From: Anaerolineae bacterium
GTDB taxonomy: Bacteria > Chloroflexota > Anaerolineae > Aggregatilineales > Aggregatilineaceae
Assembly: GCA_018432315.1 (NCBI GenBank)
Contig: JAHDLB010000022.1
Span: 12,247 to 76,246 of the forward strand
DNA length: 64,000 bases
Direction: 5' to 3'
Position 1 is the first letter of the stretch; the number at the start of each line of letters is the position of its first letter. The position numbers and the translations under genes are program-made. Positions 31,921-31,968 of the stretch are shown one piece after another. The notes below the pieces were generated by a model. That model was not told the origin of the DNA, did not search any database, and saw nothing but the letters and a program-made list of their open reading frames with translations.

Positions 31921-31968
31921 GGAATTTTGCTGCACCATTCCGGTAAATTTCCATGCTCCAAATGGTAA
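31921..31968 (+). promoter_or_regulatory. Copy A of a conserved promoter/operator motif (the motif is 58 bp; A-copy coordinates are approximate)
   Basis: GGAATTTTGC...CGGTAAATTTCC...CCAAATGGTAATTCTCCGCAT lies 35-68 nt upstream of the RHH/relaxase operon. It is collinear with copies at 46257-46314 and 53151-53208. Confidence 0.6.

Follow-up and report, generated by a model that had tools for sequence, protein, structure and literature searches.

Three phased boxes and an extended -10 form a conserved putative promoter-operator ahead of the transfer operons of a putative integrative conjugative element in Anaerolineae

Can a 58-nt sequence that recurs ahead of three operons of presumed transfer genes serve as their common promoter and operator, and which protein would read it? 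The question arose from a 64,000-nt stretch of a metagenome-assembled genome (MAG) of Anaerolineae (Chloroflexota), hereafter the window, to which all coordinates refer. From ~26 kb to 64 kb the window resembles an integrative conjugative element (ICE). The first-pass annotation of this stretch had read the three copies (A, B, and C) as a dedicated promoter/operator that places all transfer operons under one element-encoded regulator, and comparative evidence from promoter anatomy, synteny, and concerted evolution supported that proposal. We consider it probable that the element carries a class-II-like, activator-dependent transfer regulon, in which the response regulator RR1, perhaps together with a second response regulator, RR2, would bind three phased boxes in each promoter.

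The 58-nt family was the top repeat family of the window and accounted for both its longest direct repeat (D1) and its longest inverted repeat (I1). Each copy was in sense orientation ahead of an operon, as had been noted, and the 58-nt copies A, B, and C aligned collinearly without gaps. The coordinates first assigned to copies B (46257-46314, minus strand) and C (53151-53208, minus strand) were correct, but copy A spans 31921-31978 (plus strand), and its earlier end at 31968 dropped the final 10 nt. All three continue past the third box described below, to 31978, 46257, and 53151, respectively. The 3' end was indeed invariant: the 15-nt 3' box GGTAATTCTCCGCAT was exact in all three copies, and with up to three mismatches it had five matches in the window, compared to a mean of 1.33 in shuffled sequences, none of which reached five in 100 shuffles. 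The peptide NGNSPH, previously taken as a sign of the strong conservation of the motif, is shared by the open reading frames (ORFs) but is a trivial by-product of AAY GGT AAT TCT CCG CAT read in one frame, and it is located in spurious upstream extensions of these ORFs.

The search for the motif in related elements, proposed at the outset as a check, was performed on 80 Chloroflexota genome loci fetched through homologues of the 888-aa protein encoded behind copy C. Exact or near-exact searches with the window boxes found almost nothing in these relatives, GGTAATTCTCCGCAT being present solely in locus L001, and the motif family emerged only from an nhmmer profile that started from the window copies and was run iteratively until it converged. 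The converged profile yielded 112 instances in 68 of the 80 loci plus the window. Nearly all were on the gene strand at two syntenic positions, 47 ahead of the lipoprotein operon and 42 ahead of the operon for a 79-aa protein, a 156-aa protein, and a VirB4-like ATPase (89/112). Among loci with sufficient flank, a C-type copy was present in 42 of 56 and a B-type copy in 34 of 38. Individual related elements carried up to five copies, compared to three in the window.

Copies of the A type were recovered from a second sample of 80 metagenome loci, fetched through the type IV coupling protein (T4CP), which contributed 26 further copies upstream of or close to T4CP homologues. The -10 in these copies reads TTTGnGA(C/T)AATG. 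Box 1, box 3, and the -10 were invariant across eight orthologues of copy A (TTTGnGACAATG in all eight), and the flanks had wholly diverged. Contrary to expectation, no relaxase/T4CP homologues were found downstream of the minus-strand motif instances in distant loci.

The family alignment resolved a control region of ~90 bp, in which three evenly spaced boxes are followed by a promoter. The three 10-bp boxes share one consensus, G-N-A-A-W-N-Y-T-N-C, and are 21-22 bp apart, with the extended -10 TTTGnTAnnnTG at a fixed distance downstream. Counted from the first T of the hexamer, box 3 starts at -34 in 105 of 112 instances, box 2 at -56/-55, and box 1 at -77/-78. Over the 112 instances the box position weight matrix scored 5.7-11.6, compared to -4.9 in shuffles, and positions G1, A3, A4, T8, and C10 were near-invariant. 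The family consensus has a conserved CCCaAAAC before box 3 and ends in TTTGcTACGCTG, an extended -10 of the form TGnTAnnnT; hexamer positions T1, A2, and T6 were 98-100% conserved and the G of the TG 99%. The pattern TTTG.TA...TG occurred 116 times in 1.27 Mb of loci, with 90 matches inside motif instances and the remainder at about chance level. No -35 was recognisable in the family consensus, and no sigma-70 -35/-10 pair was detected around copy B, the sole region scanned. Leaders were ~25-40 nt long for copies A and C and 110-150 nt for copy B. The window features are listed in Table 1.

Table 1 Features of the window related to the three-box motif, its operons, and the candidate regulators
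Feature	Position	Strand	Details
Putative operator, copy A	31921-31974	+	Box 1 GGAATTTTGC, 31921-31930; box 2 GTAAATTTCC, 31943-31952; box 3 GTAATTCTCC, 31965-31974
Predicted extended -10, copy A	31994-32005	+	TTTGaGACAATG; hexamer 31999-32004, GACAAT
Operon behind copy A	32036-35759	+	Ribbon-helix-helix (RHH) protein 32036-32431; weak TrwC-like ORF 32428-33084; T4CP 33442-35463; HU-like protein 35463-35759 (Pfam)
Operon behind copy B	41088-46095	-	79-aa protein with two transmembrane segments 45856-46095; 156-aa protein 45302-45772; VirB4/TraC-like ATPase 43173-45302; topoisomerase 41088-42962
5' leader of copy B operon	46096-46224	-	~130 nt; predicted fold -45 kcal/mol; outer stem GCGGGGUGG/CCCACCCCGC
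Predicted extended -10, copy B	46230-46241	-	TTTGtTATCCTG; hexamer 46236-46231, TATCCT
Putative operator, copy B	46261-46314	-	Box 1 GGAATTTTAC, 46314-46305; box 2 TCAATTTTAC, 46292-46283; box 3 GTAATTCTCC, 46270-46261
Intrinsic terminator of upstream (copy C) operon	46339-46365	-	Adjoins the 5' side of copy B
Operon behind copy C	46422-53086	-	Lipoprotein 51965-53086; 368-aa protein 50849-51955; 888-aa polytopic protein 48234-50900; 455-aa protein 46870-48237; 129-aa protein 46422-46811
Predicted -10 region, copy C	53124-53135	-	TCCGcTACTATG; hexamer 53130-53125, TACTAT
Putative operator, copy C	53155-53208	-	Box 1 GGAATTTTGC, 53208-53199; box 2 GTAAATTTCC, 53186-53177; box 3 GTAATTCTCC, 53164-53155
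RR1	54010-54657	-	NarL/LuxR-type response regulator (REC and GerE-type helix-turn-helix); likely start ATG 54642
Related promoter, RR2-RR1 gap	54673-54758	-	Boxes GGAGAATTAC, 54758-54749, and GTAATTTTGC, 54737-54728; type-2 box ACTTCCTGAATTGCTCAT, 54719-54702; 21 nt; TGGTATGCT, hexamer 54680-54675
RR2	54763-55389	-	Second NarL-type response regulator; candidate upstream tier or RR1 partner
Related promoter (region D) ahead of DUF3987/primase operon	58376-58503	+	Five boxes in 22-bp phase; ACTTCCGAAATTGACCAT at 58413-58430 and 58457-58474; 21 nt; TGGTACGCT, 58493-58501

If the hexamer occupies -12 to -7, the box centres would lie near -41.5, -63.5, and -85, and box 3, at -46 to -37, would take the class-II activator position near -41.5. 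Because standard sigma-70 geometry puts the proximal box there, it would stand in place of the missing -35. For copy A, transcription would be predicted to start at ~32011, ahead of the ATG of the RHH gene at 32036. In the mechanism that we propose from this layout, RR1 would bind the three boxes cooperatively on one helix face, perhaps together with its paralogue RR2, and the bound proximal box would replace the -35 and recruit host RNA polymerase to the extended -10. The relaxase/T4CP operon and both operons of the type IV secretion system (T4SS) would be switched on jointly, as would the serine recombinase gene in relatives.

Box sequences varied between lineages, but within an element they were alike, both among the three boxes of a promoter and from promoter to promoter. 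Locus L021, for example, carried CCGGAATCTTCC three times, L061 carried TGTAATTTT, GTCAAAACTGAC, and TGTAATCCTAC, and the window carried GGAATTTT, GGTAAATTT, and GGTAATTCTCC. In 58 within-element promoter pairs, identity was 0.68-0.76 in the boxes and 0.78 in the -10, compared to 0.27 just upstream and 0.24 just downstream. The L001 orthologue of copy C had likewise kept its boxes and changed its spacers. Such likeness within an element is the pattern expected of an operator that co-evolves with an element-encoded binding protein.

Among the regulators suggested by the first-pass annotation, namely the two NarL-type proteins, the XRE protein, and an alternative sigma factor, our results favoured the NarL-type proteins. 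RR1 matched Response_reg and aligned end to end with VraR, RcsB, and DesR (E = 3e-10), which are NarL-family proteins of solved structure, and RR2 matched Response_reg and GerE. The two genes formed part of the conserved core, with homologues in 57 and 53 of the 80 loci within the fetched flanks, and were located immediately upstream of, and co-oriented with, the copy C position; among loci with sufficient flank, RR1 was present in 51 of 56. The XRE protein was disfavoured, its pair with an M78 gene being found in just 12-14 of the 80 loci in the same flanks, and no sigma-factor family match was obtained among the element ORFs scanned against Pfam and NCBIfam. The RR1 stop codon directly adjoins the motif in most relatives; in the window, RR1 and copy C are separated by a 211-aa ORF (53271-53906, minus strand) that matched no family and had no homologue among the 80 loci.

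The boxes also co-varied with the helix-turn-helix (HTH) domain of RR1. Our first Mantel-type tests, with partial r and permutation p, used promoters next to the RR genes and were confounded by linkage, and they were repeated with promoters more than 3 kb away and with the receiver domain as a control. For the distant promoters, box distance tracked RR1 HTH distance (partial r 0.44, permutation p 0.0005) but not RR2 HTH distance (partial r 0.01, p 0.42). The association with the RR1 HTH persisted when the RR1 receiver domain was controlled for (partial r 0.28, p 0.0005), and the non-box spacer tracked the RR1 receiver alone, i.e., general ancestry.

Across 56 RR1 orthologues, the phospho-acceptor Asp was replaced by E in 30 and retained in 23, G stood at the Thr/Ser position in 51, and the Lys was kept in only 23. 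The window RR1 retains D, S, and K, and the RR2 receiver is partly canonical in its phosphorylation residues. Judged by these residues, both are atypical or pseudo-receiver response regulators, and RR1 is a pseudo-receiver across the family, a concept that has been described for response regulators (PMC12632262). A degenerate receiver implies that control is probably exerted through the amount of RR1 rather than through phosphorylation. No kinase gene was found among the window element ORFs scanned against Pfam or NCBIfam.

Several observations weigh against RR1 as an activator on three boxes. The -10 was assigned by consensus alone; copies A and B carry the TG of the extended -10, but copy C has CG in its place, and position 1 of the copy A hexamer is G. 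The co-variation is correlative and modest (partial r 0.28-0.44) and derives from phylogenetically non-independent MAG sequences, and RR1 is physically nearer to the T4SS operons than RR2 is. Promoters of loci L057 and L067 carry box types unmatched to a single RR1 type, which implies that the specificity is broad, that recombination has occurred, or that a second protein binds. Inverted heptamers, rather than direct repeats spaced 22 bp apart, are the usual targets of NarL-family proteins. The boxes here are direct repeats, each 10-mer being partly dyad-symmetric in its outer positions only (G..A....T..C), and none of them forms a NarL-type site of two inverted heptamers (7-2-7). Short, AT-rich, and partly dyad-symmetric boxes also leave orientation and stoichiometry ambiguous.

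The same sites could, moreover, serve a repressor, since an extended -10 can fire without an activator. RR1, RR2, or another element protein would then coat the three boxes and shut an active extended -10 until induction. This alternative draws on the ability of extended -10 promoters to function without a -35, on the TG in most copies, and on the XRE/M78 pair of the element, which is typical of repressor-based switches. We nevertheless regard it as unlikely: the boxes span about -90 to -37 without ever covering the -10 or the predicted start, which are the usual repressor sites, activators classically use helically phased sites of which one is at -41.5, and the GC-rich hexamer TACGCT suggests a weak, help-dependent -10. 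On geometry, we infer an activator rather than a repressor. The binder could instead be another protein (the XRE protein, the RHH or HU-like protein of the copy A operon, or a host regulator), with the RR genes as mere neighbours. All element genes co-vary with lineage to some degree, and the XRE and RHH proteins are element-encoded DNA binders, but a neighbour's role for the RR genes seems rather improbable to us given that the boxes tracked the RR1 HTH beyond the receiver of the same protein, as the spacer did not, and that box clusters adjoin the RR1 gene itself. For the XRE protein in particular, homologues of the XRE/M78 pair were found in far fewer loci than the RR genes (12-14 versus 53-57 of 80), and no box chain was found in the XRE-RR2 intergenic region.

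It is very unlikely, in our assessment, that no specific regulator is involved and that the phased A/T tracts act as curved or UP-like DNA, or that an unrecognised alternative sigma factor reads the -10; either arrangement would yield a strong dedicated promoter. Neither curvature nor a sigma factor would readily account for box variants that are lineage-specific, recur in every promoter of an element, and co-vary with a DNA-binding domain; curvature does not require the near-invariant G1, A3, A4, T8, and C10, and the scanned ORFs gave no sigma-factor family match. The attraction of these explanations lies in A/T tracts placed two helical turns apart in GC-rich DNA, including the A-tract CCCaAAAC before box 3, and in the near-confinement of the TTTGnTAnnnTG signature to motif promoters (90/116 matches in 1.27 Mb). 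A non-regulatory repeat, such as a miniature inverted-repeat transposable element (MITE), a repetitive extragenic palindrome (REP), an origin-of-transfer (oriT)-like site, or a cis-acting RNA, would fit a length of ~58 nt in several copies, and copy C folded somewhat better than shuffles (z = -1.9), but copies A and B gave no fold signal (z = -0.07 and +0.43). With no consistent fold among copies A-C and no Rfam match, the motif was rejected as an RNA; a MITE or REP was rejected on the grounds that the copies are syntenic and nearly all gene-sense. Sense orientation at syntenic intergenic sites before the same operons, three to five copies per element, which is unlike oriT, and no terminal inverted repeats seen make a non-regulatory repeat scarcely credible.

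The proposed regulon exceeds the three sites of the window, related promoters being present at the RR1 gene and the DUF3987 operon, and at the recombinase gene in distant relatives. In relatives the RR2-RR1 gap contains phased boxes and a TGnTA(y)GCTG -10, and boxes in this gap were strongly enriched (58 observed versus 5.1 in shuffled gaps), with an enrichment of phased boxes in most relatives. Such boxes suggest that RR1 may be autoregulated or under RR2. The layout of region D, ahead of the DUF3987/primase operon, was identical in L003 and L002. Loci L001 and L004 carried a different repeat, GTCCTATTTTGCC, at both the RR1 and DUF3987 promoters, as well as a different RR2 recognition helix. 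The pattern, which is confounded by physical linkage, hints at a second class of operator for RR2 and at a cascade in which RR2 would control RR1, RR1 would control the transfer operons, and RR1 would feed back on its own gene. Positive feedback is suggested because the RR1 promoter has transfer-type boxes in addition to the second box type: RR2 would activate RR1, and RR1 would reinforce its own promoter. We put forward only tentatively a full two-tier, self-reinforcing cascade, in which RR2 would act on type-2 boxes (RR1 and replication promoters) and RR1 on type-1 boxes (transfer and recombinase promoters), with a shared unusual -10 and a leader RNA as a further checkpoint for the pilin/VirB4 operon.

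In L067, a motif copy (~22321, minus strand) precedes the gene for a 746-aa large serine recombinase (19859-22099, minus strand), and recombination appears to belong to the regulon in this element. Minus-strand copies with the same downstream sequence were found at the same place in L039, L050, and L070, and the window recombinase has no motif copy of its own. L067 also carries an extra motif copy ahead of a GDSL-lipase/cadherin-like 428-aa protein, beside a MerR/CopZ cargo pair (15362-16785, plus strand), which indicates that accessory genes can be wired into the regulon.

The operon behind copy B has a long leader in addition to the motif. A terminator directly 5' of copy B, reported in the first-pass annotation, was confirmed at 46365-46339 (minus strand), with an 11-bp stem, seven GC pairs, and a T run. 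The 79-aa protein is the true first gene behind the copy; it is hydrophobic, was conserved in 46 loci at 58-92% identity, and may be a pilin or VirB2-like component. The ORF 45813-46370, a candidate for this first gene in the ORF track, was rejected as spurious, its frame differing from that of the conserved 79-aa ORF. A covariance model of the leader in relatives, R1 (~105 nt, built from nine sequences), found 40 copies, all in the leader of the 79-aa/VirB4-like operon, among them L071 14545-14652, L039 14490-14598, and L014 14878-14968. Its inner helix, GUGCCAGAUGA...UCAUGGCGCAC, was nearly invariant, and its outer helix showed compensatory changes in 11 of 11 pairs. Paired cells amounted to 96.6%, compared to 27-56% with slid partners, and none of 500 shuffles reached the observed values, in an alignment that was fitted to the model and so favours structure.

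For the copy B leader, RNAalifold returned no structure from raw MAFFT alignments. At gathering score, searches of the window and six loci against Rfam 15 matched only tRNAs elsewhere, and the motif-and-leader region of L071 had no match at E <= 1. By its covariation, the leader of the copy B operon is a conserved structured RNA across the family, so far undescribed. R1 gave no match on the window leader, which is predicted to be a diverged, clade-specific variant of the family leader RNA.

Annotation of the remaining element genes was sparse, and most of its presumed T4SS proteins matched no Pfam or NCBIfam model. The VirB4/TraC-like ATPase was assigned by weak NCBIfam matches, and the 368-aa, 888-aa, and 455-aa proteins behind copy C are membrane proteins. 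Apart from the three operons, the element encodes a DUF3987 protein, a primase, a large serine recombinase (61791-63827), the two response regulators, and the XRE/M78 pair. A plasmid database search with the copy A/T4CP region gave no match, and no description of such elements in either Anaerolineae or Chloroflexi came up in our searches of the literature; to our knowledge, conjugation in Chloroflexota is essentially unstudied.

Control of several transfer promoters by one element-encoded activator has precedents in other phyla. At the xis, int, and tra promoters of the SXT/R391 ICEs, a 19-bp SetCD box adjoins or covers the position of the -35, which is missing (PMC4344509). Like our candidate system, SetCD/AcaCD of the SXT/R391 ICEs and IncC plasmids is an element-encoded master activator that uses one conserved box at transfer, excision, and integration promoters in a class-II-like arrangement without a -35, and SetCD acts downstream of a phage-type repressor, to which the XRE/M78 pair of the window may be compared. 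Unlike the FlhDC-type heteromer SetCD on its single 19-bp site, the candidates here are NarL/LuxR-type paralogues on three phased 10-bp boxes, and the two systems differ in host phylum and have unrelated T4SS genes. TraR of Agrobacterium Ti plasmids is an activator with a LuxR/GerE-type HTH, and its tra box overlaps the -35 of several conjugal transfer operons. It resembles the present case in the HTH of the candidate and in a box at the -35 position of several transfer operons, but has an acyl-homoserine-lactone binding domain instead of a receiver and binds one 18-bp palindrome rather than three direct repeats.

Multi-tier element-encoded cascades that end in the co-activation of transfer operons are found in ICEclc (TciR-BisR-BisDC) and CTnDOT (RteA/RteB/RteC). 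CTnDOT likewise uses a response regulator, but the proteins of both systems belong to other families (LysR/BisDC in ICEclc, and the NtrC-type RteB in CTnDOT), and we know of no three-box phased operator described for either. RcsB-RcsA is a pair of atypical NarL-family regulators. In Streptomyces, the NarL-family paralogues BldM and WhiI cooperate and can recognise asymmetric sites (PMC4125116). Both pairs share with RR1 and RR2 the NarL family, non-canonical receivers, and no cognate kinase nearby, but they control chromosomal development or capsule genes instead of a mobile element. By analogy, the Anaerolineae system would be functionally SetCD- or TraR-like yet outside those families, with response regulators closer in kind to BldM/WhiI.

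The motif offers a sequence-level handle on a whole transfer regulon, in a family that spans well over 100 MAG and metagenome contigs: it marks operon starts, delimits the regulon, and names a candidate regulator. Pairs of boxes and HTH domains provide natural specificity variants with which DNA recognition by NarL-type pseudo-receivers could be studied. Digesters and activated sludge harbour abundant Anaerolineae, and the motif therefore bears on gene flow in those communities.

Other sequences near the element promoters were distinct from the motif. XRE-type HTH and M78/IrrE-like peptidase genes (55637-56770, plus strand), an ImmR/ImmA-like pair, point away from RR2 on the other side of an AT-rich gap that contains TATAAT-like sequences, and the pair may be a top-level switch. 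Upstream of the primase gene, an inverted-repeat array of GTGACA/TGTCAC with GAATTYTGTCAC units extends over 60210-60350 (plus strand), and TGTCAC/GTGACA clusters of a related kind stand upstream of the DUF3987 gene in L001 and L004. The first-pass annotation had linked this array to the three copies; GGAATTTTG does recur in it, at 60322-60330, but as a lone 9-mer with neither phased boxes nor the -10 signature, and the array was rejected as part of the motif. It is more plausibly a separate operator or iteron-like array, outside the three-box motif. A 24-codon upstream ORF (MTPPPLSSLCWTSCGARRHAFPLI; 58537-58611, plus strand) with a PPP run overlaps the likely DUF3987 start ATG at 58592, is similar in L002 and L003, and may be a leader for translational coupling or stalling. 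Three ~30-nt direct repeats sharing TTCTACGATA (29775-29912, plus strand), unrelated to the motif, lie upstream of the ORF 29969-30787.

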